Positions 2,176 through 21,521 of a stretch of DNA of 50,988 nucleotides are shown here, one piece after another. The notes beneath the pieces are model-generated. The model did no database searches. It was not told where the DNA came from and was given only the letters and a program-made list of their open reading frames with translations. The position numbers and the translations under genes were made by a program. Each line of letters begins with the position of its first letter. The stretch's first letter is position 1. Source of the DNA: a virus (Duplodnaviria; Caudoviricetes); the IMG/VR virus record IMGVR_UViG_3300037261_000025, positions 1 to 50,988 of that record; one strand, written 5' to 3'.

Positions 2176-2390
2176 GACGTGGGAAAGCACCTCTAGGCGA
2201 GGCAAGCAGCTTCGCAAAACTCAGCAACGAGCAAGTGATGGACATTCGAAGCAAGCAGCGCCAGCGGCTGGCTATGCTCAAGTACATCCGCGAAAATCTG
2301 TCGCTTGAAGCTGTGGCAAAGCAGTACGACGTCGCACAATCAACGATAACTTGCATCAATTCTTACAGGACATGGGGGCATATTGAATGA
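2172..2390 (+). CDS. Small HTH DNA-binding protein (resembles the C-terminal HTH of phage HNH endonucleases)
   Basis: GE...AKLS..QV..IR ... VAKQYDVAQSTITCI...TW.H pattern; ATGA overlaps. Confidence 0.65.
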   Translation: MRRGKAPLGEASSFAKLSNEQVMDIRSKQRQRLAMLKYIRENLSLEAVAKQYDVAQSTITCINSYRTWGHIE

Positions 2391-4585
2391 ATCAAGACTA
2401 CGATAAGTTTGTGAATGGCAAGCGCAGATCTGAATTGGCGACAGGGCATCAACCAGGTGATCTGAACGAACATCTGTTCGACTTCCAGCATGCCATTACA
2501 TCATGGGCAATTCGGCGTGGGCGCTCGGCAATATTTGCTGATACCGGCCTTGGAAAAACTCTGATGCAACTATCATGGTCCGATGAGGTTGTTTCGCATA
2601 CGAACGGCATCGTTTTGATTCTTGCTCCATTGGCTGTATCAGAACAAACAATCGAACAGGGAAACACATTCGGAATTGAAGTAAAACGCGTTCCTCACGG
2701 AGAATCTCCATCATCGCCAGGAATCTGGATCACAAACTACGAGCGTATGGATGCGATTGATTTTGCAGAACTATCAGGTATCGTTCTTGATGAAAGCTCT
2801 ATCCTGAAATCTCACGATGGAAAGACTAGAACAAAGATCATCACGTCATGCCAGCAGGTCCAATATCGGCTTAGTTGCACAGCGACTCCATCTCCTAATG
2901 ATTTCGAGGAACTTGGAAATCAGTGCGAGTTCTTGGGAGTGATGACTCGTACAGAGATGCTGGCTACGTATTTTGTCAATGATACTGGCGATACCGGTAC
3001 ATGGCGACTGAAAGGATGGGGACAGTCCAGATTCTGGGAATGGATGGGATCATGGGCTGTGGTGCTTCGTAGTCCTGCGGATATTGGATTCGATGGATCA
3101 CGCTACGAACTTCCTGCGCTCCAGTATTTTGAGCATGTTGTCGACGTGGCCGGTCAAAGCGGCGATCTATTCGCAAAGCCAGCACTCACCATGCTGGAAC
3201 GTCGAAAGGCCCAGCGCGATAGTATTAAACAACGATGCGAGGCATTGGCAGAGATTGTGAACAGTGAACCAAATGAACCATGGCTTATCTGGTGCCACCT
3301 GAATGACGAGGCCGAATTGATAGAGTCGCTTGTCGCAGGGTCTGTGAACATCCAAGGATCTGATTCTGTCGAGTTCAAGACAAAAAACATGATGGCATTC
3401 AGTCATGGCGACTTACGTATCCTAGCCAGTAAACCAAAAATATGCGGGTACGGTATGAATTGGCAACACTGCGCAAGAATGGCATTCGTCGGACTTGATG
3501 ACTCGTTCGAGAAGTTCTACCAGGCCGTTCGTCGGTGCTATCGGTTTGGACAAAAGCGCAGTGTTCACGTCCTCGTTTTCACCGCAGAAAACGAGGGGCA
3601 AATACTTGCAAACTTGAAACGAAAAGAACTGCAACACCATGAAATGAGCGCAAATATGATTGAACACATGAAAGACATTATGAACAACGAACTGGCCGGA
3701 CAAACAAACGTGGTGGATGCATACAGAGAGGATACCCATACATCGAATAATTTCACAGTCCATCTTGGAGACTGCGTGAAATGGACTCGGCGCATGGAAT
3801 CGAACAGCATAGACTATTCCGTGTTTTCTCCACCTTTCGCCGACTTGTTCGTTTATTCAAACAGCGATCATGACATGGGAAACTGCAAAGACGATGCTGA
3901 GTTTGTCGCGCAACTTCGATTCTTGATCTCTGAGCTTTTCCGAGTCATCAAGCCAGGACGTAACGTCTCCTTCCATTGCATGAATCTTCCAACGACAAAG
4001 ATGCGCCAAGGGTTTATTGGATTGCGTGATTTCCGTGGAGACTTGATTCGTGCATTCCAAGATGCAGGATTTATCTATCACTCCGAAGTTGCTATCTGGA
4101 AAGACCCCGTAGTCGCAATGCAACGTACAAAGGCACTTGGTCTGCTGCATAAGACCATCCGCGAAAACAGCACCATGAGCCGTATGGGATTGCCTGATTA
4201 TGTTGTCACGATGCGCAAGCCTGGGGATTGCGAAGTTCGCGTTACTCATGGAGAAGATTTCCCGGTGGCATTGTGGCAAAAATATGCAAGCCCTATCTGG
4301 ACTGACATTAACCAGGGACGAACGCTCAACAAACTTCCTGCCAGGAACGAGAATGACGAGAAGCATATGTGCCCACTGCAGTTAGATGTTATCGAACGGT
4401 GCATCCATCTTTGGACAAACCCCGGTGATGTAATTTTCTCGCCTTTCACTGGCATCGGTAGCGAGGGATATTGTGCTGTGAAGATGGGGCGAAAGTTCGT
4501 TGGAACTGAACTAAAGCCGCAATATTGGGAGTTGGCATGCCAGAACATTGCTGACGCTGAGAATGAGCAAATTGGTCTTTTTTAA
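2387..4585 (+). CDS. SNF2-like helicase fused to a beta-class N4-C/N6-A DNA methyltransferase
   Basis: DTGLGKT, LDESS, CTATP and QAVRRCYRFGQ helicase motifs; then SPPF (motif IV) before PFTGIGSEG (motif I). Confidence 0.9.
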   Translation: MNQDYDKFVNGKRRSELATGHQPGDLNEHLFDFQHAITSWAIRRGRSAIFADTGLGKTLMQLSWSDEVVSHTNGIVLILAPLAVSEQTIEQGNTFGIEVKRVPHGESPSSPGIWITNYERMDAIDFAELSGIVLDESSILKSHDGKTRTKIITSCQQVQYRLSCTATPSPNDFEELGNQCEFLGVMTRTEMLATYFVNDTGDTGTWRLKGWGQSRFWEWMGSWAVVLRSPADIGFDGSRYELPALQYFEHVVDVAGQSGDLFAKPALTMLERRKAQRDSIKQRCEALAEIVNSEPNEPWLIWCHLNDEAELIESLVAGSVNIQGSDSVEFKTKNMMAFSHGDLRILASKPKICGYGMNWQHCARMAFVGLDDSFEKFYQAVRRCYRFGQKRSVHVLVFTAENEGQILANLKRKELQHHEMSANMIEHMKDIMNNELAGQTNVVDAYREDTHTSNNFTVHLGDCVKWTRRMESNSIDYSVFSPPFADLFVYSNSDHDMGNCKDDAEFVAQLRFLISELFRVIKPGRNVSFHCMNLPTTKMRQGFIGLRDFRGDLIRAFQDAGFIYHSEVAIWKDPVVAMQRTKALGLLHKTIRENSTMSRMGLPDYVVTMRKPGDCEVRVTHGEDFPVALWQKYASPIWTDINQGRTLNKLPARNENDEKHMCPLQLDVIERCIHLWTNPGDVIFSPFTGIGSEGYCAVKMGRKFVGTELKPQYWELACQNIADAENEQIGLF

Positions 4586-4590
4586 GGATA

Positions 4591-4613
4591 CGGACTCAAA
4601 TAACTGGAGTCCG
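4591..4613 (+). other. Intergenic hairpin after the methyltransferase gene
   Basis: cggactc-N9-gagtccg; no U-tract. Confidence 0.4.
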
Positions 4614-4647
4614 AATGAAAACCCAACTAGACCGCCTTGGAACGCTG

Positions 4648-4675
4648 TTGACATTTTTGAAACACGCCGGATAAT
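4648..4675 (+). promoter_or_regulatory. Sigma70-type promoter for the replication operon
   Basis: TTGACA (4648-4653), 16-nt spacer, GATAAT (4670-4675). Confidence 0.75.
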
Positions 4676-4684
4676 CCACGTTCT

Positions 4685-4766
4685 GAACCCGGCTATCCAC
4701 GGATTGATCCCCATGGAGAAAAGAGAACCCTGCTCCTGCCGTCAGTTCTTTCAAGGGATCACAGGA
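4685..4766 (+). ncRNA. Candidate structured 5'-UTR (three-way junction plus pseudoknot next to the RBS)
   Basis: GAAC/GTTC, CGGC/GCCG, TCCA-GG/CC-TGGA, GAG/CTC; loop TGATCCC complementary to GGGATCA 4755-4761 beside AGGA. Confidence 0.45.
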
Positions 4767-4771
4767 TAAAA

Positions 4772-5581
4772 ATGAACCTAACTCAACACCCTCTTAGCGG
4801 CGCATTCCCGTCAATGAACGATGCGGATTTTCTGGCGCTGAAAGACGACATAGAAAACAACGGGCAACGCGAGCCAGTCATTGTTTTAGACGGAATGGTG
4901 CTCGATGGATGGCACCGGTTTCAGGCGTGCACACAACTCGGAATGGCTGTGAAAAAGTTCACGTTCGATCCGAGCGACGATCCTGTTGCGTTCGTTCTGA
5001 GCCAGAACATGCACCGGCGCCACTTGACCGCTTCGCAGCGTGCCGCCGCCGTTGTCGCATGCTCAAATTGGTCGCCTCCACATCGTCAAAAGAAGTCCGC
5101 ACCTGGTGCGGACTTATCAAAAACAACGAAGGAACTTGCCATTATTGCGGGCACTGGGACTCGAACTATCGAGCATGCGAAAGCGGCTGAAAAGGCCGGT
5201 CTCGGAGATTTGGTGAAAGAAGGCGTAATGACCGCAAAAGAGGGAGCAAAAGTTGCATCTGGGAAGATAGATGAAAAGCCCTCAAAAGTTCTGCCAAAAC
5301 CGGAAGTCGCTTTCATAGAACACGATCAGGATAAGGTGCAGATTCTCAGCGAAGAGAATGACCGCCTGAACGACCGATTGGCTGTAGTGGCGATGGATGC
5401 CACACCAGAAGAGCGCAGCGCGGCCAAGGACACGATCGCAAGCCTTCGCGCAGAACTCAAGACCATGGGTATTGAACTGGCTGCAGTCAAGGCGTCTCGA
5501 GATAGCTTGATGATGGAGACAAACGAACTTAAAAAGCAATGTGCAAGCCAACGAAAACAGATCGAAAAGTTGACGAAATAA
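4772..5581 (+). CDS. ParB/Srx-like N-terminal domain protein with HTH and C-terminal coiled coil
   Basis: HP....FP.M..ADF.AL..DI..NGQREP...G.VLDGWHRFQAC; SQNMHRRHLTASQRA. Confidence 0.8.
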   Translation: MNLTQHPLSGAFPSMNDADFLALKDDIENNGQREPVIVLDGMVLDGWHRFQACTQLGMAVKKFTFDPSDDPVAFVLSQNMHRRHLTASQRAAAVVACSNWSPPHRQKKSAPGADLSKTTKELAIIAGTGTRTIEHAKAAEKAGLGDLVKEGVMTAKEGAKVASGKIDEKPSKVLPKPEVAFIEHDQDKVQILSEENDRLNDRLAVVAMDATPEERSAAKDTIASLRAELKTMGIELAAVKASRDSLMMETNELKKQCASQRKQIEKLTK

Positions 5582-5624
5582 TGCTCACGCCGACGAGCCA
5601 GTGTCGGTATTTTTTGGGGATTTT

Positions 5625-8600
5625 ATGAGTGAAGTTGTCCTATTTGAAGATCAAAAAGAGGTGCTAGATAAAGTGCGTTCCGCGTTTATTGAGGGCCATA
5701 GGTCTGTGATGTTGTACGCGCCAACTGGCGCCGGAAAGTGCTTAGGACGCGATACACCTGTGATGATGGCAGACGGAACCATCAAGCCGGTGCAGGACAT
5801 CATAGCTGGTGAGTTTTTGATGGGCGACGATGGCGATCCGCGCTGTGTTATGAGCACAGCAACGGGAAGAGAAATGCTCTACCGCGTGACGCCACGAAAG
5901 GGTGATTCCTATGTGGTGAATGCGAGCCATCTTCTAAGTCTGCGTGTGACTCCAGGTAGCAACGGGATCCTTCTTGCTGATGGTATGCACATTAAGCGTG
6001 GTGAAGATGTTGTCTCTGTTCGTGCAGACGTATTCGCAAGAAGCAATAGAACCGCGAAGCATTGCCTAAAGGGCTGGAGATCGGATGCTATCCAAGCGTT
6101 CATGCGCGAGGATGATGGCGAGGACCGATTGATGCCGTCATATATTCTTGGTGCATGGCTTGGAGACGGAACCTTGGGCCACGCATCGATTACGAAGCCG
6201 CGCAGCAGGATGGTTGATGAGTGGGTTGCCTATGGTAGATCGATTGGTTACGGCGTCAGTATTGACGAGTGCGATGGTCGATGCCCCACATGGTTGTTGA
6301 CGAATGGATCTGACGGGTACGCATTCAACATCGCTCAATCGTCTCTTGGCGTCATCGGGGTCTTGCAGCGCAAGCACATACCTGACGCCTATAAGTATGG
6401 CCCGCTCTCTGATCGTCTGCAACTGCTGGCAGGTCTGATTGACAGCGATGGATCAGAATCGAATGGCGGATGCGACTGGATCAGTAAGAGCGAGGAGCTT
6501 GCCCGCGACTTCGCATTCGTCTGCCGTTCAGTGGGGCTGGCGTGCTACTTGACCTATGAGAAGAAGGGAATAAAGAGTACCGGATTTGTAGGTTGGTACT
6601 GGCGGGCGAGCGTGAGCGGAGACCTATCGATCATCCCGACGCGCGACAAGATATTCCCCGAACGTCGACAGATCAAGCGGCATCTTGTCCACGGGATCAC
6701 CGTCGAGCCAATGGGAGAGGGTGACTACTTCGGTTTCGAGATCGATGGTAATCGGCTGTTCTTGCTGGGTGACTTCACGGTAACGCACAACACCGAGATG
6801 GCAATTTCCATGCTCAAAGCAACGTCGGACAAGTACAAGCGCGGGGCAATGATGCTTGACCGCATTGTTCTTTGCAATCAGACAAGCGCGCGCCTGCAGA
6901 AGTACAACATCGATCACGGCGTCATGCAGTCAGGCCATTGGCGAAATCGACCCTATGAGCGCATCCAAGTGTGTAGTGCGCAGACTCTCGAAAAGCGCGG
7001 ATCGTTCCCAGGGCTTGACCTTTTGATTGTTGATGAGTGTTTTCCTGGTGAAACGTTAATTGACACAATTGACGGCGCGCGTCGAATAGACACACTAAAC
7101 GATGGCGGTCTCATATACAATGCAATAGGTACTGGAACAGTTCGTTCAATTTTCTCGAAAACGGTGTTTCAGACATTGCTTGTAAGGATGTCAAATGGCG
7201 ACTCATTTGAATGCACAGAGGATCATCCCGTGTTCACTGACTTGGGATGGCAACCCGCTGGCGCCATGGCGCGGGGTACGAAGCTATTTCGCGGTGAAAA
7301 CTTGCGAAGTCTGTGGAGAGGAGATTCGACCGCTTGTCATAAACTCGAAAACGGAGGGAGTGATACCGGAAGCGGAAACATTATTCAATGCGCGGAAATG
7401 TTGCGGGAAATCTTGCGCCAAGAAATTGAGCAACCCGATGCACAAGCCGGAATTGCGTATGAAAATGAAGGATACGCTTCTCCGAATTGGGCACAAGCCA
7501 TTGGTGCGCGGAGGCAATGGGAAGGGCATGACGGAGACCGAGACGCTTATGTTGAGCAAGTTGCCGGTGGGGTGGGGTCCAGGCCACATTTTCAAGACGT
7601 TGAGAAGTGCGGCTCAGGGGTATCCGCATCACTACAAATTGGATCTTGCGTTTCCTATCCAAAGGCTTTGTCTGGAGTTGGATGGCGGGAGTCATCGCTC
7701 GATTGCTCGGCAAGCGCAGGACGCGAAGAAGGATGCGCTGCTAAGAGAGTTTGGGTGGAAAGTGTGCAGACTCAAGAACACCCAAGCGGTAGAACTGTTT
7801 TCAACTTGCGAGTCAGTGGACACCCTTCGTATTTTGCAAATGGCTACCTAGTCCATAACTGCCACACCCAGCGACAGCAGACAACGGAGTTCATTCGGTC
7901 GAACGAAAGCATCAAAGTCATCGGCCTATCGGCTTCACCATTCGCCGACGGACTTGGAAAGACCTATACCAAGGTCGTATCGGCAACAACCACTGCAAAG
8001 TTGGTAGACCAAAAGCGACTCGTTCCTCTGCGCGTGTTTATCGCCAAGGAAATCGACATGGCTGGAGCGAAGAAAGTCGCTGGAGAATGGTCACAGGGCG
8101 AAGCGGCAGAGCGGGGCATGAAAATAACCGGCGATGTGGTGGCTGAGTGGGTGAAGAAAACGACCGAGATTTTCGGTGGACCTCGAAAGACGATTGTGTT
8201 TTGCTCGAATGTCGCCCACGGCGCTGATCTGGCGAATAAGTTCTCGGATGCCGGGTACAACTTCGTCGCGATCAGCTACAAGGATTCTGACGAGTTCAAG
8301 GTTGATGCCGTCGCTGATTTCTCAAAGCCTGATACGGCCATTCATGGTCTGATTGCATGCGACATCTTGACCAAGGGATTTGATGTGCCTGATGTCATGA
8401 TCGGAGTCAGCGCGCGTCCGTTCACCAAGTCATTCATGAGCCACGTCCAGCAAATGGGCCGGGTGATGCGCAGCTACCCAGAAAAGGAGTTCGCAATATG
8501 GCTTGACCACTCGGGGAACTATCTCCGGTTTCAAGAGGACTGGGACGAGCTATACCACGAAGGAGTCCATGAACTTTCTGACGGAAAAGAAAAGGCAAAG

Positions 8601-8975
8601 AAAGAAAAATCCGACAAAGAAAAGGAAGCGGCAAAGTGCCCTCGATGTCATGCGCTATGGGTCGGAAAGTCCGACAACTGCGTTGCATGCGGGTATGCCA
8701 GGCCGTTCACCAGCTTGATCGAAGCCGTACCGGGTGAGATGGAAGAACTCAAGGGTGCTCCGACGAAGGATGTGAAGCAGTCATGGTATTCGCAGCTTCG
8801 CACGCTTGCGGAGAACAGAGGATATTCGAATGGCTGGGTCGCGCACAAGTACCGTACCCGTTTTGGGGTGTGGCCCAAGGGCTTGCAGGAGGTTGCGCTG
8901 CCAGTTAGCATCGAGGTCGCACGATGGGAAACAAGCCAAAGAATTGCATGGGCTAAAGGTAAGAAATCAGTATGA
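5625..8975 (+). CDS. SF2 DEAD/DEAH helicase (RadD/YejH-like) containing two inteins; ~491 aa after splicing
   Basis: APTGAGK|T, IVDE|CH, GLSASP, LTKGFD, QQMGRVMR, C-terminal CxxC..CxxC and GW.AHKY...FG.WP. Confidence 0.92.
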   Translation: MSEVVLFEDQKEVLDKVRSAFIEGHRSVMLYAPTGAGKCLGRDTPVMMADGTIKPVQDIIAGEFLMGDDGDPRCVMSTATGREMLYRVTPRKGDSYVVNASHLLSLRVTPGSNGILLADGMHIKRGEDVVSVRADVFARSNRTAKHCLKGWRSDAIQAFMREDDGEDRLMPSYILGAWLGDGTLGHASITKPRSRMVDEWVAYGRSIGYGVSIDECDGRCPTWLLTNGSDGYAFNIAQSSLGVIGVLQRKHIPDAYKYGPLSDRLQLLAGLIDSDGSESNGGCDWISKSEELARDFAFVCRSVGLACYLTYEKKGIKSTGFVGWYWRASVSGDLSIIPTRDKIFPERRQIKRHLVHGITVEPMGEGDYFGFEIDGNRLFLLGDFTVTHNTEMAISMLKATSDKYKRGAMMLDRIVLCNQTSARLQKYNIDHGVMQSGHWRNRPYERIQVCSAQTLEKRGSFPGLDLLIVDECFPGETLIDTIDGARRIDTLNDGGLIYNAIGTGTVRSIFSKTVFQTLLVRMSNGDSFECTEDHPVFTDLGWQPAGAMARGTKLFRGENLRSLWRGDSTACHKLENGGSDTGSGNIIQCAEMLREILRQEIEQPDAQAGIAYENEGYASPNWAQAIGARRQWEGHDGDRDAYVEQVAGGVGSRPHFQDVEKCGSGVSASLQIGSCVSYPKALSGVGWRESSLDCSASAGREEGCAAKRVWVESVQTQEHPSGRTVFNLRVSGHPSYFANGYLVHNCHTQRQQTTEFIRSNESIKVIGLSASPFADGLGKTYTKVVSATTTAKLVDQKRLVPLRVFIAKEIDMAGAKKVAGEWSQGEAAERGMKITGDVVAEWVKKTTEIFGGPRKTIVFCSNVAHGADLANKFSDAGYNFVAISYKDSDEFKVDAVADFSKPDTAIHGLIACDILTKGFDVPDVMIGVSARPFTKSFMSHVQQMGRVMRSYPEKEFAIWLDHSGNYLRFQEDWDELYHEGVHELSDGKEKAKKEKSDKEKEAAKCPRCHALWVGKSDNCVACGYARPFTSLIEAVPGEMEELKGAPTKDVKQSWYSQLRTLAENRGYSNGWVAHKYRTRFGVWPKGLQEVALPVSIEVARWETSQRIAWAKGKKSV
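5739..6791 (+). mobile_element. Intein 1 (351 aa) with LAGLIDADG homing endonuclease, inserted in Walker A
   Basis: GK|CLGRDT...VNASHLLS...GDFTVTHN|T; ILGAWLGDG and LLAGLIDSDG motifs. Confidence 0.95.
7038..7859 (+). mobile_element. Intein 2 (274 aa) inserted in Walker B (DE|CH)
   Basis: DE|CFPGETLI...ECTEDHPVFT...VFNLRVSGHPSYFANGYLVHN|C; no in-frame endonuclease motifs. Confidence 0.93.
7195..7851 (+). CDS. DUF559/Vsr-like (PD-(D/E)xK) endonuclease overprinted in the +1 frame inside intein 2
   Basis: AAGGA RBS 6 nt before ATG; CEVC...CCGKSC, NPMHKPE.R.KM, YKLDLA...LELDGGSH...DAKKDALL...GWKVCRL. Confidence 0.8.
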   Translation: MATHLNAQRIIPCSLTWDGNPLAPWRGVRSYFAVKTCEVCGEEIRPLVINSKTEGVIPEAETLFNARKCCGKSCAKKLSNPMHKPELRMKMKDTLLRIGHKPLVRGGNGKGMTETETLMLSKLPVGWGPGHIFKTLRSAAQGYPHHYKLDLAFPIQRLCLELDGGSHRSIARQAQDAKKDALLREFGWKVCRLKNTQAVELFSTCESVDTLRILQMAT

Positions 8976-9685
8976 GTAACACCAATTGTCGATGCGGTAT
9001 TTATTCAATTGCTACGCCGAATGGCAGTACGTACATTGGCAGCAGCAACAAAATCGAGCGCCGATGGCACGAGCACCGGAGCCTGTTGCGCCACGGCAAG
9101 CACCATTCCACGAGGTTGCAGGCAGCTTGGGATAAGCATGGTGCGGCGCTTGTGTTTTCTGTATTGATGGAATGCCCGCTGGCTGAATTGAACGAGCGGG
9201 AGCATGAGTTTATTGATCGGCTTGGCGCTAAATTGAATACGTCCACATTCGTAGAAAACGTTTGGCTTAACGAAAGTACACGGGCGAAGTTCTCGGCTAT
9301 CCACCAATCCCCCGAATGGAAGGAATCCCGTAGACGCATTGCGACCGAATCTTCAACGCGCTGGGTAGCAGTCGAGTGCAGCAATGGGACTCAGTACAAG
9401 AACATGACGGATGCGGCACGCGCTTTTGGGGTTCGCGCTGCTGGCATCGCTCATCTTGTCAGGTCGCAGCGAGTTGGAAGGCTTGGCGTCCGCTTCAAAC
9501 TACAAACAGAGTGTTGGCGCGATGTGCCGACATGGCAGGATCAGCGCGTCATTACTATGCGCCAAAACGGCAACGACAAACGCACCGATCAATCTCGCGC
9601 GCGCATGAGCGCAGCGAAGAAGGGGCGCGCCGTCAGCCCCCAATGCCTTGCGGCCGCGACTGCTGCGAATCGGAAGACTGCATGA
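8972..9685 (+). CDS. Free-standing GIY-YIG homing endonuclease with NUMOD-like C-terminus
   Basis: CGIYSI...YIGSS..IERRW.EH..LL..GKH...LQAAWDKHG; ATGA overlaps at both ends. Confidence 0.9.
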   Translation: MSNTNCRCGIYSIATPNGSTYIGSSNKIERRWHEHRSLLRHGKHHSTRLQAAWDKHGAALVFSVLMECPLAELNEREHEFIDRLGAKLNTSTFVENVWLNESTRAKFSAIHQSPEWKESRRRIATESSTRWVAVECSNGTQYKNMTDAARAFGVRAAGIAHLVRSQRVGRLGVRFKLQTECWRDVPTWQDQRVITMRQNGNDKRTDQSRARMSAAKKGRAVSPQCLAAATAANRKTA

Positions 9686-19224: not shown

Positions 19225-20187
19225 TTAAAGTCCAAAGATCATCGCCATGGCGAGCGCCCGGCTATTACTGAGCACCGCCGTGCTTACTGTCTGCCGCACA
19301 AGAATTTGTGTGGCACCTGGAAGCACGACCACTTGACTTACCCAGCCGCTGGTCACGTCGCCCGCCACAAGGGCGGTATACCCCCCTGCGGATGTCCCTT
19401 TGACCAGCGGTAGTGCGGCCAGTCCGCTGATCGCCAGCGTGGGTGACGCGCCGCAAGTAGAGTTAAAGGTCACATCGAAGTGCATGCCTGCCGGGGTCGC
19501 GGCAATTGCGGGTGACGGGGTGAGCGTATATGCGGTTGAAGTGCCGCCCGTAGTGAACGCCACCGGTGTCTGGGCTTGATAGGTAGCGCTACTCAACACC
19601 GTGGCCGGTAGGCTGGTGGGGGACGCGCTCAAGATACTGTACTGCATCACCGACGCGCCAGAGTCCAGCGCGATGCTATCATTGGTGACCACTACGGTGG
19701 TGATCCCGGCCCCGAAGCTACTGGACACAATAGTGCCGTAAGCCAACCCGCCAGAGACCGTGAGCTTGACCCGACGCAGCGCTTGCAGGATTGCGGTCTG
19801 GTCGCCAGTCACCGAGAAGCTGGTGGCGCTGATATAGGTTGGAACACCGCCCAACAGCCATTCGGCAGCGTTCACCTGAGTGTAAGACGCATCGTTGATG
19901 CCGGACACGTTGTCCATCGAATAACCGATCTGGTTGCCCAGAGAATCAGTGATGACGAACTTGTACTTGGTTCCGGCTGCGAGCCATATTTCTTGTTGAG
20001 GTCTGCCACCCGCATCGAGTTGCATTGGATTCGCATTGGCCACGCCCTGGGACGGGTCTGTCCAAGTAGGGGCCAATGATGTTGACCCAGCCAAATAAGT
20101 CCAGAGTTGCCCGCCAGCAGCAGGGAGCCCGGAATTGGTGAAAACCTGAGCGCCTGCCCCGAAGAATGGTGCGAGAAATGCGCTCAT
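19225..20187 (-). CDS. Tail fibre or tailspike with head-binding-like N-terminus
   Basis: FT..G.P.AGG.L.TY.AG....TW.D.....NANP..LD..GR; Thr/Ser-rich. Confidence 0.72.
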   Translation of the reverse strand: MSAFLAPFFGAGAQVFTNSGLPAAGGQLWTYLAGSTSLAPTWTDPSQGVANANPMQLDAGGRPQQEIWLAAGTKYKFVITDSLGNQIGYSMDNVSGINDASYTQVNAAEWLLGGVPTYISATSFSVTGDQTAILQALRRVKLTVSGGLAYGTIVSSSFGAGITTVVVTNDSIALDSGASVMQYSILSASPTSLPATVLSSATYQAQTPVAFTTGGTSTAYTLTPSPAIAATPAGMHFDVTFNSTCGASPTLAISGLAALPLVKGTSAGGYTALVAGDVTSGWVSQVVVLPGATQILVRQTVSTAVLSNSRALAMAMIFGL

Positions 20188-21521
20188 GTTGCGGCCTCAT
20201 ATTCAAAATGGGTGGCGTACCCGTGCTTGTGGAAGTCCGGCAATTGCTTTTCCATGCTCTCGCCCACATCGTCCCGCAGACCCATGTTGCTGATGTGGAG
20301 TTGCTTCGCTGTCTTATAAGCCCGTTCAGCCGCCTGCTTCACATCTTTGCCGTACCCCGTCACCACCATCACATAATCGCCGGAAGTGTTCCATGTCGGG
20401 CGCTTCACAACCTTTTCGCCCTCCATGTCAGGCATGATGTCGATCTTGATGGATTGCGGGTGCAGGTGCTTCTTGTTGCCCTTGGTTACCCCGTAAACAG
20501 GAACGCCGGACACTTCTTTCTTTGTGGCATTTCCGTGGGGAAAGTCACCGTGAACGAGCACGATGCAGCAACCAATGTCTTTCTTGAATGTGGTCGTGTC
20601 CTTGCCCTTGAGTGCGTCGATCATCCACTGGGCGGGATCACCTTCAATGGACCCCAACATCATATTGAATATGGGCCAACCGGGGCGGCAAGTCCATTCA
20701 AGGACCCATGCCTTGCCGTCTTTGTCGATCATGAACCCGATCGCGACATCACCACTATGTCCGTGCTTGAGAAGCTCTTTCTCCAACTTGGCGAGTGTTT
20801 CTTCCCCAAGTTTGGATTTTTCGACAAACGCCGCGATGGTCCCCATCTCACCTGTGTTGGGGCCGAAATTTCCGGACATCAGCTTCTTGTGCTCGAAGGA
20901 TTCGTTATATGGTCCCACGAAGCCATCACGCCCGAACCAACGGCTAACCCCAAGTTCCATGCCGCCGTCCACAAAGTCCTGCAGCATCACATCGCCCTTG
21001 GGCTCTTGCTTCAGGCCGACCATTCGATCGATCCATCCAATCATATCAGCAGGGCTTTTGGAGCAATACGTCAACGCTTTGTTTTCATTGTCCCCCATCG
21101 TCTTGAAAACGAAACGCTTGCTTGTCTCTTCAACATGCTTCTTGGCCTCAGACATGTTCTTGAATGTCTTGTAGGGTGCGACATTCAATCCCGCCGCCGC
21201 GCAGATGTCCAGTCCAGTTTTACGGTCAATTTCGAGCTTTGCGCTTTCAGGGCTAGGTCCGAACACTGGAGCACCGCGTTTTTTGAAGAACGCCAAGCGT
21301 TCGATGAACATGTCATTGGATGTCGGGAAAATAAGGTCCGCCCATTTCACATGGGATACCCAGTTCGCGACCTTTTCAATCCCCTTGAACCCGTCGCCGG
21401 TCTGTTTTGAGATTGAAGGCTTGTCGGCAAGGAACCACTTCACCTCATGTCCGGCCTGGACGCAACGCCACGCGAAGGACAAACCAACTCCATCGCTGTC
21501 AATGATCAGGATTTTTGCCAT
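20184..21521 (-). CDS. PurD (GAR synthetase)-like ATP-grasp ligase
   Basis: FGPS..SA.LE, EHKKL..G..GPNTGEMG, LEWT.R.G.P; lacks GGREH. Confidence 0.8.
   Translation of the reverse strand: MAKILIIDSDGVGLSFAWRCVQAGHEVKWFLADKPSISKQTGDGFKGIEKVANWVSHVKWADLIFPTSNDMFIERLAFFKKRGAPVFGPSPESAKLEIDRKTGLDICAAAGLNVAPYKTFKNMSEAKKHVEETSKRFVFKTMGDNENKALTYCSKSPADMIGWIDRMVGLKQEPKGDVMLQDFVDGGMELGVSRWFGRDGFVGPYNESFEHKKLMSGNFGPNTGEMGTIAAFVEKSKLGEETLAKLEKELLKHGHSGDVAIGFMIDKDGKAWVLEWTCRPGWPIFNMMLGSIEGDPAQWMIDALKGKDTTTFKKDIGCCIVLVHGDFPHGNATKKEVSGVPVYGVTKGNKKHLHPQSIKIDIMPDMEGEKVVKRPTWNTSGDYVMVVTGYGKDVKQAAERAYKTAKQLHISNMGLRDDVGESMEKQLPDFHKHGYATHFEYEAAT

Follow-up and report, generated by a model that had tools for sequence, protein, structure and literature searches.

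A putative DUF559/Vsr-like homing endonuclease gene overprinted in the +1 reading frame of a phage helicase intein

The window analysed here is the complete IMG/VR virus record IMGVR_UViG_3300037261_000025 (Duplodnaviria; Caudoviricetes), a DNA of 50,988 bases with a CheckV completeness of 100%. The open reading frame (ORF) at positions 5601..8975 on the plus strand encodes a precursor of 1124 amino acids (aa), a phage superfamily 2 (SF2) DNA helicase with two inteins. The ORF matches the family phrog_16 (E 4.9e-54) and the Pfam families ResIII and Helicase_C. The second intein, intein 2, is encoded at 7038..7859 on the plus strand and comprises 274 aa in the reading frame of the helicase (frame 0). 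It is inserted between DE and CH of helicase motif II (DE^CH). Another gene is found wholly inside intein 2 in the +1 frame (7195..7851, plus strand), encoding a DUF559/Vsr-like putative homing endonuclease of 218 aa. The endonuclease encoded by this +1-frame ORF is referred to as HEN. The last extein codons before intein 2, GAT GAG (7032..7037, plus strand), encode the DE of Walker B (motif II), and the codons that follow it, TGC CAC (7860..7865, plus strand), encode the CH of motif II with the +1 nucleophile Cys. These codon pairs are the left and the right half of the presumed homing site.

Intein 2 begins with CFPGETL and ends with YLVHN, after which CH follows. Its splicing residues are Cys1, T60-x-x-H63 of block B, the C-terminal H273-N274 and the +1 Cys. 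The residues C1, H63, H273 and N274 are invariant among 59 aligned inteins. Two splicing lobes were modelled by AlphaFold2 (AF2) with a high predicted local distance difference test score (pLDDT): the N-terminal lobe (7038..7307, plus strand; intein aa 1-90; pLDDT 88-98) and the C-terminal lobe with blocks F and G (7755..7859, plus strand; intein aa 240-274; pLDDT 94-98). They are connected by a frame-0 read-through linker (7308..7754, plus strand; intein aa 91-239), which has no domain match and is predicted to be disordered; the pLDDT is below 50 at residues 97-113, 133-194 and 201-234 of the intein model. The Pfam search of frame 0 of intein 2 gave weak Hint-type matches at both ends only and no match in the middle. 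In the Foldseek search with the intein 2 model, 41 PDB structures matched at E <= 0.001, with inteins and intein-like domains on top. The best match was the gp41-1 intein 6qaz (E 7.5e-8, template modelling (TM) score on the target 0.85), presumably one of the split inteins of Dassa et al. 2009. Intein 2 combines the features of a class 1 intein, namely the Hint fold, the splicing residues and an insertion that is absent from close homologues. Judged by its residues and its model, intein 2 looks splicing-competent.

The +1 ORF is delimited by signals that are built into the intein sequence. The +1 frame is closed by the TAA codon at 7183-7185, three codons upstream of the HEN ATG, and the Shine-Dalgarno (SD)-like motif AAGGA (7183..7187, plus strand) lies 7 nt upstream of the same ATG. 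The +1-frame stop and the SD-like motif are thus combined in the sequence TAAGGA in the window; in many relatives both parts are played by TGAGG. The ATG is formed within the frame-0 dipeptide N-G (aAT Ggc). The TAG stop codon of HEN at 7849-7851 arises within the L and V codons of block G (cTA Gtc), and 8 nt separate it from the intein end. The geometry of the overlap was compared in 75 units for which both junctions were mapped. In the core group, the HEN ATG is located at intein nt 157, where it falls within a (D/N)G dipeptide that immediately precedes block B. In 42 of the 75 units, the stop codon of HEN lies exactly 8 nt from the intein end and arises from the L-V of ...LVHN. Among 66 unique inteins, the first ATG is found at intein nt 154-163 in 38, and 41 have a stop codon in the +1 frame no more than 6 codons upstream of this ATG. 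In 34/66 unique inteins, the region -18..-4 relative to the first ATG contains a core SD motif, compared with 369/2126 (17%) of background ATGs.

Three modules were recognised in the HEN protein. The first is a zinc-ribbon-like module (7303..7416, plus strand), in which all of 67 sequences share C37, C40 and C74 and at least 90% of them share C70; it is modelled as short beta hairpins with pLDDT 83-93. The module is followed by a helical segment, NPMH...R.K...TLK.IGH (7432..7494, plus strand), a likely DNA-binding motif with conserved N80, P81 and H100. The NPMH segment is modelled as a helix at residues 85-98, and it may resemble the NUMOD motifs. The third module is the nuclease domain (7507..7788, plus strand) with the pattern RGGNG ... 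YKxD ... ExDGxSH ... DxKKD ... GWxVxR..N. In this domain the residues D150, E161, D163, H167, D176, K179, R192 and N195 are invariant or nearly so in the 67 sequences. In total, 19 columns are invariant among these sequences, including the proposed catalytic residues D150, H167 and D176 and the proposed zinc-binding residues C37, C40 and C74. The Pfam family DUF559 (PF04480) matches residues 137-198 with E 8.4e-8 and 32.5 bits, above the gathering threshold of 20.6, and PF04480 is precomputed on 18/18 database homologues of HEN.

The AF2 model of HEN has a mean pLDDT of 80.1. In its core, the cysteines are surrounded by short beta hairpins, and helices and a nuclease domain of alpha/beta type make up the rest. 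The pLDDT is below 50 at residues 1-18 and 216-218, the last ~18 residues are low (block means 57 and 51) and a loop at ~101-110 averages 59. The low-confidence termini are the stretches that overlap the intein splicing blocks. In Foldseek, HEN matched the DUF559 protein 3hrl with probability 0.99 and the homing endonuclease I-Bth0305I (3r3p) with probability 0.98 and a TM score (target) of 0.65. The HEN profile also matched 3hrl among the PDB sequences (E 1.7e-4). The match to Vsr itself (1cw0) has a probability of 0.66 and a TM score (target) of 0.37, and the Pfam Vsr family was unmatched at E <= 1. According to the models, HEN is therefore Vsr-like in fold class only. E161, D163, H167 and D176, candidate counterparts of the EDxHD residues, are conserved in HEN.

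Frame 0 and the +1 frame are both open across all 657 nt of the HEN gene. When the frame-0 codons of the intein were shuffled in order, a +1 run of at least 221 codons was obtained in 1/20,000 trials. Synonymous resampling of frame 0 gave such a run in 633/20,000 trials; this higher figure indicates that the frame-0 amino-acid sequence itself is shaped to avoid +1 stops. With the HEN protein fixed, frame 0 was fully open in 0/20,000 synonymous resamplings and in 0/20,000 codon shuffles. No host-frame stop was observed in the 66 unique inteins, against a mean of 8.1 per locus after synonymous resampling of HEN. The dual open frames are not due to chance. Stop-codon absence is the only constraint that is detectable in frame 0 of the linker. 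Its hydrophobic content equals that imposed by the HEN sequence: the linker hydrophobicity is 0.235 vs 0.231 after synonymous HEN resampling, lower in 28/66 (Wilcoxon p 0.055), which gives no evidence of selection for low hydrophobicity. A preliminary description of this DNA, made from the letters of the sequence, had reported intact splicing blocks in intein 2, an in-frame middle without a recognisable domain, a 218-aa +1 ORF with its own AAGGA and two frames that stay open for 657 nt. It had also read a Cys cluster (C37, C40, C70, C74), an NPM segment (NPMH at residue 80) and a nuclease motif (ELDGGSH...DAKKD...GWKV) in the ORF. All of these features were found as described.

Selection was followed separately in the two frames. 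In a set of 13 ungapped inteins of 274 aa, the codon position with the greatest nucleotide diversity is position 3 of frame 0 throughout both exteins and at intein nt 1-210 and 750-822. At nt 211-750 of the same set, the maximum moves to position 1 of frame 0, equivalent to position 3 of the HEN codons. The switch recurs in an independent group, 9 inteins of 347-352 aa, at ~nt 271, with the return at ~nt 990. The ratio of nonsynonymous to synonymous substitution rates (dN/dS, omega) was calculated by the Nei-Gojobori method for 7 pairs; an eighth chosen pair was dropped, one of its contigs being too short. For the intein middle, the +1 frame gave an omega of 0.08-0.21 (computable in 6/7 pairs) and frame 0 one of 0.61-3.06 (7/7), and the frame-0 omega in the exteins and at intein nt 1-156 is 0.04-0.37; the method is biased where frames overlap, which detracts from these values, and the periodicity is therefore taken as the sturdier result. 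A variant contig from a peat metagenome differs from the window at three sites within the overlap (7278, 7512 and 7662). All three are third positions of HEN codons and synonymous in HEN, and one of the three is synonymous in frame 0. These comparisons of sequences show purifying selection on the +1 frame in the intein middle and on frame 0 at the intein ends.

The recurrence of this layout was studied in three IMG/VR samples of 80 loci each, taken with the HEN alignment (183 confirmed), with a distant HEN alignment (334) and with the frame-0 N-lobe alone (108). The N-lobe sample was chosen to remove the bias of a HEN search, and 79 of its 80 loci were analysable. In the first sample, the overprinted layout was present in 80/80 loci, with HEN identities of 32-68%. 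The host frame is stop-free across the match in all 80 and belongs to an ORF of 465-2781 aa, and the third sense frame contains 2-21 stops. The second sample, which shares 12 loci with the first, contained 79/80 loci overprinted likewise, the exception being L119 with a free-standing HEN, and in 77 of its loci a recognisable HN|C/S junction lies beside the HEN stop. In the N-lobe sample, the +1 frame was judged by the longest open segment, which had to reach from HEN profile position 40 or less to at least 195. A single uninterrupted +1 segment was found in 74/79 loci. The remaining loci are two at a contig end, one with the nuclease core only (L244), one with a split intein and an intact HEN (L246) and one without HEN (L252), a related intein of 322 aa with no HEN match in any frame.

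At the protein level, 40 GenBank phage records match HEN. A single coding sequence (CDS), annotated as helicase, hypothetical or P-loop protein, lies under the match in 25/25 of those listed. The layout was present in all three GenBank phages inspected, Pseudomonas phage MR14, Corynebacterium phage phi673 and Vibrio phage CP-T1: each contains an unannotated HEN ORF of 211-249 aa in the +1 frame of the annotated helicase CDS, between ...DE|CF and HN|CHH. A blastn search with the intein against GenBank phages gave no match, and a scan of species-representative genome contigs with the single HEN protein gave none either. The scan of species-representative genomes with the HEN alignment returned only L082 (Endozoicomonas atrinae) and L083 (a Nitrosomonadales metagenome-assembled genome), both of them partial matches over residues ~75-215 with 45% identity. 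Contigs with the window sequence occur in other public metagenome runs, without insertions or deletions over the covered parts. One contig of 232 nt from an RNA library covers only 6845-7076, the junction of N-extein and intein, and not the +1 ORF; it may derive from DNA. The preliminary description had named a profile search, the state of the +1 frame in homologues and frame-specific dN/dS as checks. Each was run with a positive outcome: DUF559 at 32.5 bits, the +1 frame uninterrupted in 74/79 loci found through the frame-0 splicing domain alone, and constraint that lies in the +1 frame in the middle and in frame 0 at the ends. Its expectation that standard annotation would miss the gene agrees with the lone CDS in the 25 listed GenBank records.

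The distribution of the intein points to mobility. The five nearest relatives of the C-extein (63-85% identity) lack both inteins and read DE|AH in three cases and DE|CH in two. For the pair of loci L010 and L011, the synonymous rate (dS) of the intein middle is 0.064 and that of the C-extein is ~2; dN is ~0.1 in both exteins and the N-extein dS is saturated. From the difference in dS between the intein and the C-extein it follows that the intein is much younger than its host genes. Thus, the intein has been shown to be sporadically distributed and, in one pair, much younger than the exteins. The N-junction lies directly after the DE of Walker B in 76 of the 78 loci with a mapped N-junction. 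The hosts of the intein-HEN unit include ResIII/Helicase_C helicases, an SNF2 ATPase, a helicase-methylase fusion and a large terminase. The window itself contains an SNF2-like helicase/N6_N4 DNA methylase fusion gene (2387-4585), which reads VLDE|SSILKS at ~2789, an empty site. A related intein with a +1 HEN occupies this site in L069, L072 and L075, and a related intein with a +1 HEN is also present at the corresponding site of a similar helicase-methylase in L056.

The great majority of the loci have the architecture of intein 2, a contiguous intein that is overprinted. Three further architectures were found. At locus L119 (3358-5626), a free-standing HEN of 213 aa is encoded upstream of an intein-less DEAH helicase gene and overlaps its start by 35 nt. 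L119 may reflect an ancestral state with an endonuclease directed at the gene next to it. Locus L246 (482-4780) is a fractured gene, in which frame 0 is interrupted, the N- and C-parts lie in one frame and HEN lies in +1. Its N-part ORF (482-2851) ends inside the intein and also holds a LAGLIDADG-type intein. The HEN of L246 (2634-3857) has 407 aa with many CxxC repeats, and it overlaps the N-part by 218 nt and the C-intein/C-extein ORF (3752-4780) by 106 nt. In the third case, the superfamily 1 (SF1) UvrD-like helicases P0020, P0021 and P0022 contain an intein after ...IDE| with the DUF559 core in frame between the splicing lobes.

On the basis of these sequence comparisons, we propose with a probability of about 0.85 that intein 2 is a working cis-splicing intein and that its homing endonuclease is encoded separately, by a gene written over it in the +1 frame. 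Ribosomes that translate the helicase would pass straight through intein 2 in frame 0. The two lobes (~90 and 35 aa) would fold about the disordered linker of ~145 aa, and the intein would excise itself and restore motif II as DECH. Internal initiation on the same mRNA, at AAGGA-N7-ATG (7195), would give the 218-aa protein. In the prediction, its unstructured leader is followed by a Cys4 zinc-ribbon, then by the helical segment for DNA binding and finally by the DUF559/Vsr-like nuclease domain. By analogy with I-Bth0305I, the targets of HEN would be intein-free helicase alleles (DE^AH or DE^CH) in co-infecting phages. Repair of the break from the copy that has the intein would pass on intein and endonuclease as one unit. 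The suggestion of the preliminary description that splicing and homing are decoupled by dual coding is supported by the comparison of homologues.

Several observations weigh against this proposal. Intein 2 falls below the Pfam cut-offs for inteins, with 21.1 vs 27 for Vint and 16.4 vs 35.8 for Intein_splicing; its relatives exceed these cut-offs, e.g. L038 with 46.9 and L048 with 60.5. The Foldseek E-values for the whole HEN model are all above 0.001, the sequence link to the characterised EDxHD enzyme 3r3p is not significant (E 0.67) and PHROGs has no family for the +1 ORF. An SD-like motif is absent in 32/66 unique inteins, and in distant loci the true start may differ from the first ATG. 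The promoter scan of the plus strand found no sigma-70-like site upstream of the +1 ORF, a result that fits translation from the helicase mRNA and does not show it. The loci of the three samples are related to one another, so their counts do not represent independent events, and none of the four metagenome runs compared with the window showed a joint without the intein. Finally, initiation within the helicase mRNA, DNA cleavage by HEN, the choice of its target and the splicing of intein 2 are all inferred.

An alternative is that the +1 nuclease is real and selected and has a role other than homing, such as host DNA degradation, repair or anti-defence, being merely lodged in the intein. Many bacterial members of DUF559, a family of unknown function, are not mobile, an exhaustive search gave 1554 representatives at E <= 0.001, and homing is a predicted role of HEN. 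This alternative is nevertheless unlikely. The HEN gene is nearly always located within the intein (80/80, 79/80 and 74/79 loci), and its sole free-standing relative, in L119, abuts an intein-less helicase gene of the target type. The unit has changed host gene among different ATPases, with its insertion point always behind the DE of Walker B, and is younger than the exteins in one pair. The domain order, a DNA-binding region followed by a Vsr-like nuclease, is that of I-Bth0305I.

The nuclease might also be produced by programmed ribosomal frameshifting from frame 0, as a fusion to the N-extein and the intein N-lobe with no independent initiation. Exactly such a fusion is predicted for P0019, a frame-fused protein of 522 aa from a single contig, which contains ResIII, the intein N-lobe and DUF559 and ends at the HEN stop. 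A frameshift mutation or an error in sequencing could explain P0019 equally well. A ribosome that entered the +1 frame upstream of the ATG would meet the TAA three codons before it in the window, or a comparable stop within 6 codons in 41/66 inteins. The conserved position of the ATG and the SD-like motif, and the unstructured residues 1-18 of HEN, also argue for a separate start, and frameshifting is regarded as quite improbable. A decaying relic of an endonuclease is less probable still. In that case intein 2 would effectively be a mini-intein with a long junk linker, for which the endonuclease-less relative L252 and the bare nuclease core of L244 provide a precedent. A relic is at odds with a +1-frame omega of 0.08-0.21, with third-position periodicity that follows the +1 frame in two independent groups, and with 19 invariant columns in 67 sequences and a confident fold; conservation imposed by frame 0 is contradicted by the frame-0 omega of 0.6-3.1. 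That the endonuclease is really an in-frame intein domain displaced by an assembly or sequencing frameshift, as the in-frame forms of the HEN nuclease in the inteins of P0020-P0022 could suggest, is the least probable reading, given that frame 0 is open here and in hundreds of independent contigs (with a resampling mean of 8.1 stops per locus), that contigs of other public runs carry the same sequence without indels over the covered parts and that three finished GenBank phage genomes have the same layout.

The overprinted endonuclease proposed here was compared with known systems, as far as they are described in the available parts of the publications cited. Out-of-frame intein endonucleases are already known. 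The preliminary description had pointed to reports of alternative-frame intein endonucleases in actinobacteriophages, which is correct: antisense LAGLIDADG, antisense Vsr-like and same-strand frame-3 EndoVII-like endonucleases occur in actinophage inteins (Gosselin, Arsenault and Gogarten, bioRxiv 10.1101/2025.01.02.630785). They are proposed to have arisen when a free-standing endonuclease gene invaded an intein, and they are noted to escape annotation pipelines (bioRxiv 10.1101/2025.01.02.630785). According to the same preprint, Vsr-like intein-associated endonucleases had earlier been reported only with split inteins. Intein 2 shares with the actinophage cases of Gosselin et al. a contiguous intein, a separate overlapping endonuclease ORF, a structureless in-frame region and an open host frame. 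The Vsr-like enzymes of Gosselin et al. are antisense and the only same-strand case described there is the frame-3 EndoVII-like one, whereas HEN is DUF559/Vsr-like and encoded on the sense strand in +1. The hosts in that preprint are DNA polymerase, minor capsid, terminase and thymidylate synthase genes, while the present unit follows the Walker B DE of helicases and other ATPases. Unlike the cases of Gosselin et al., the present loci belong mostly to non-actinophage metagenomic phages, and the ORF runs into both splicing lobes.

A +2 LAGLIDADG ORF has been described in cyanobacterial dnaX inteins (Phillips, DeSimone and Gogarten, bioRxiv 10.64898/2026.09.14.751524). This system resembles intein 2 in its overlapping sense-strand ORF, its SD-like motifs and its disordered in-frame middle, and also in the low values of dN/dS for the endonuclease frame and the raised ones for the intein frame (Phillips et al.). 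It differs in the LAGLIDADG enzyme, the +2 ORF and the cellular host gene (Phillips et al.), in place of a DUF559 enzyme in +1. In fractured genes, the two halves of a split intein are separated by a free-standing gene for a Vsr-like or GIY-YIG endonuclease (Dassa et al. 2009, PMC2677866). The order of N-intein, endonuclease and C-intein on one strand and the Vsr-like nuclease are common to the fractured genes and intein 2 (PMC2677866). The 3′ end of the endonuclease gene overlaps the C-intein coding region by 6-69 bp in the fractured genes (PMC2677866) and by ~100 nt here. The host frame of fractured genes is divided over two ORFs and splicing occurs in trans (PMC2677866), whereas frame 0 of intein 2 is continuous over 5601-8975. 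Since frame 0 runs through intein 2, splicing would take place in cis. L246 represents a true fractured form with the same +1 geometry.

I-Bth0305I is a dimeric site-specific homing endonuclease and the prototype of the EDxHD enzymes, in the N-terminal parts of which NUMOD motifs occur (Taylor et al. 2011, PMC3239194). HEN resembles I-Bth0305I (PMC3239194) in the order of a predicted DNA-binding region at the N-terminus and a Vsr-like nuclease fold at the C-terminus; conserved E, D, H and D residues are present in HEN. I-Bth0305I is encoded by a group I intron and has an N-terminal NUMOD2/helix-turn-helix region (PMC3239194), in contrast to HEN with its intein location and Cys4 ribbon. The literature search, which extended to sources other than supplementary files and subscription journals, so that an earlier report is possible, found no sense-strand +1 DUF559/Vsr-like endonuclease in a contiguous intein. 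With the same scope, it found no report of an intein-HEN family that targets Walker B. The sense-strand +1 DUF559 form in a contiguous intein is thus new to the literature searched.

A broader reading is that intein 2 represents a large undescribed class, in which a mini-intein at the Walker B DE has captured a +1 zinc-ribbon/DUF559 gene with fixed geometry, and that this class is a cis-splicing missing link in a series of architectures. We put this reading forward tentatively, at somewhat below even odds. The series would run within one family through free-standing (L119), overprinted, split (L246) and in-frame (P0020-P0022) forms. If the reading is true, one frame-0 stop codon or a small indel would turn one architecture into another, and the origin of split inteins and of canonical endonuclease-bearing inteins would become directly testable. 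The occurrence of free-standing, split-intein and in-frame forms in one family provides a concrete series for the "splicing first, endonuclease later" model. The series also bears on the origin of naturally split inteins, which are important tools in protein engineering. Several ATPase families carry the unit behind Walker B, which supports the view that inteins switch hosts with nucleotide-binding motifs as stepping stones. The finding stands out by its breadth and by joining four endonuclease-intein architectures. A selected nuclease gene is hidden within annotated helicase genes, and with ~220 codons read in two frames and selection passing between the frames and back, the overlap is among the clearest natural cases of dual coding. 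Splicing and homing would be uncoupled in this arrangement, and the dosage of the endonuclease could follow its own ribosome-binding site, apart from the output of the helicase.

The first intein of the helicase precursor, intein 1 (5739-6791, plus strand), comprises 351 aa and splits Walker A of the helicase (GAGK|C...HN|TE). It matches Hom_end_hint with E 1.3e-16 and shows weak matches to LAGLIDADG_3 and Hom_end. With intein 1 in Walker A and intein 2 in motif II, both ATP-binding motifs of one helicase are occupied. After removal of both inteins, the helicase is predicted to have 499 aa, and the ORFs of intein-less relatives encode 503-585 aa. The helicases of the relatives L084-L088 are without either intein. 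A free-standing GIY-YIG endonuclease gene is located in the window at 8972-9685 (Pfam E 1.4e-8) and starts 4 nt before the helicase stop codon. It is the third nuclease of mobile-element type at the helicase locus. Elsewhere in the window, an ORF of 206 codons in an alternative frame (20554-21171, plus strand) was taken as a chance open frame; it has no Pfam match, and neither has its host ORF (20142-21407). A second long alternative-frame run, of 217 codons, lies inside a longer ORF on the minus strand (reverse-complement coordinates 2323-2973).

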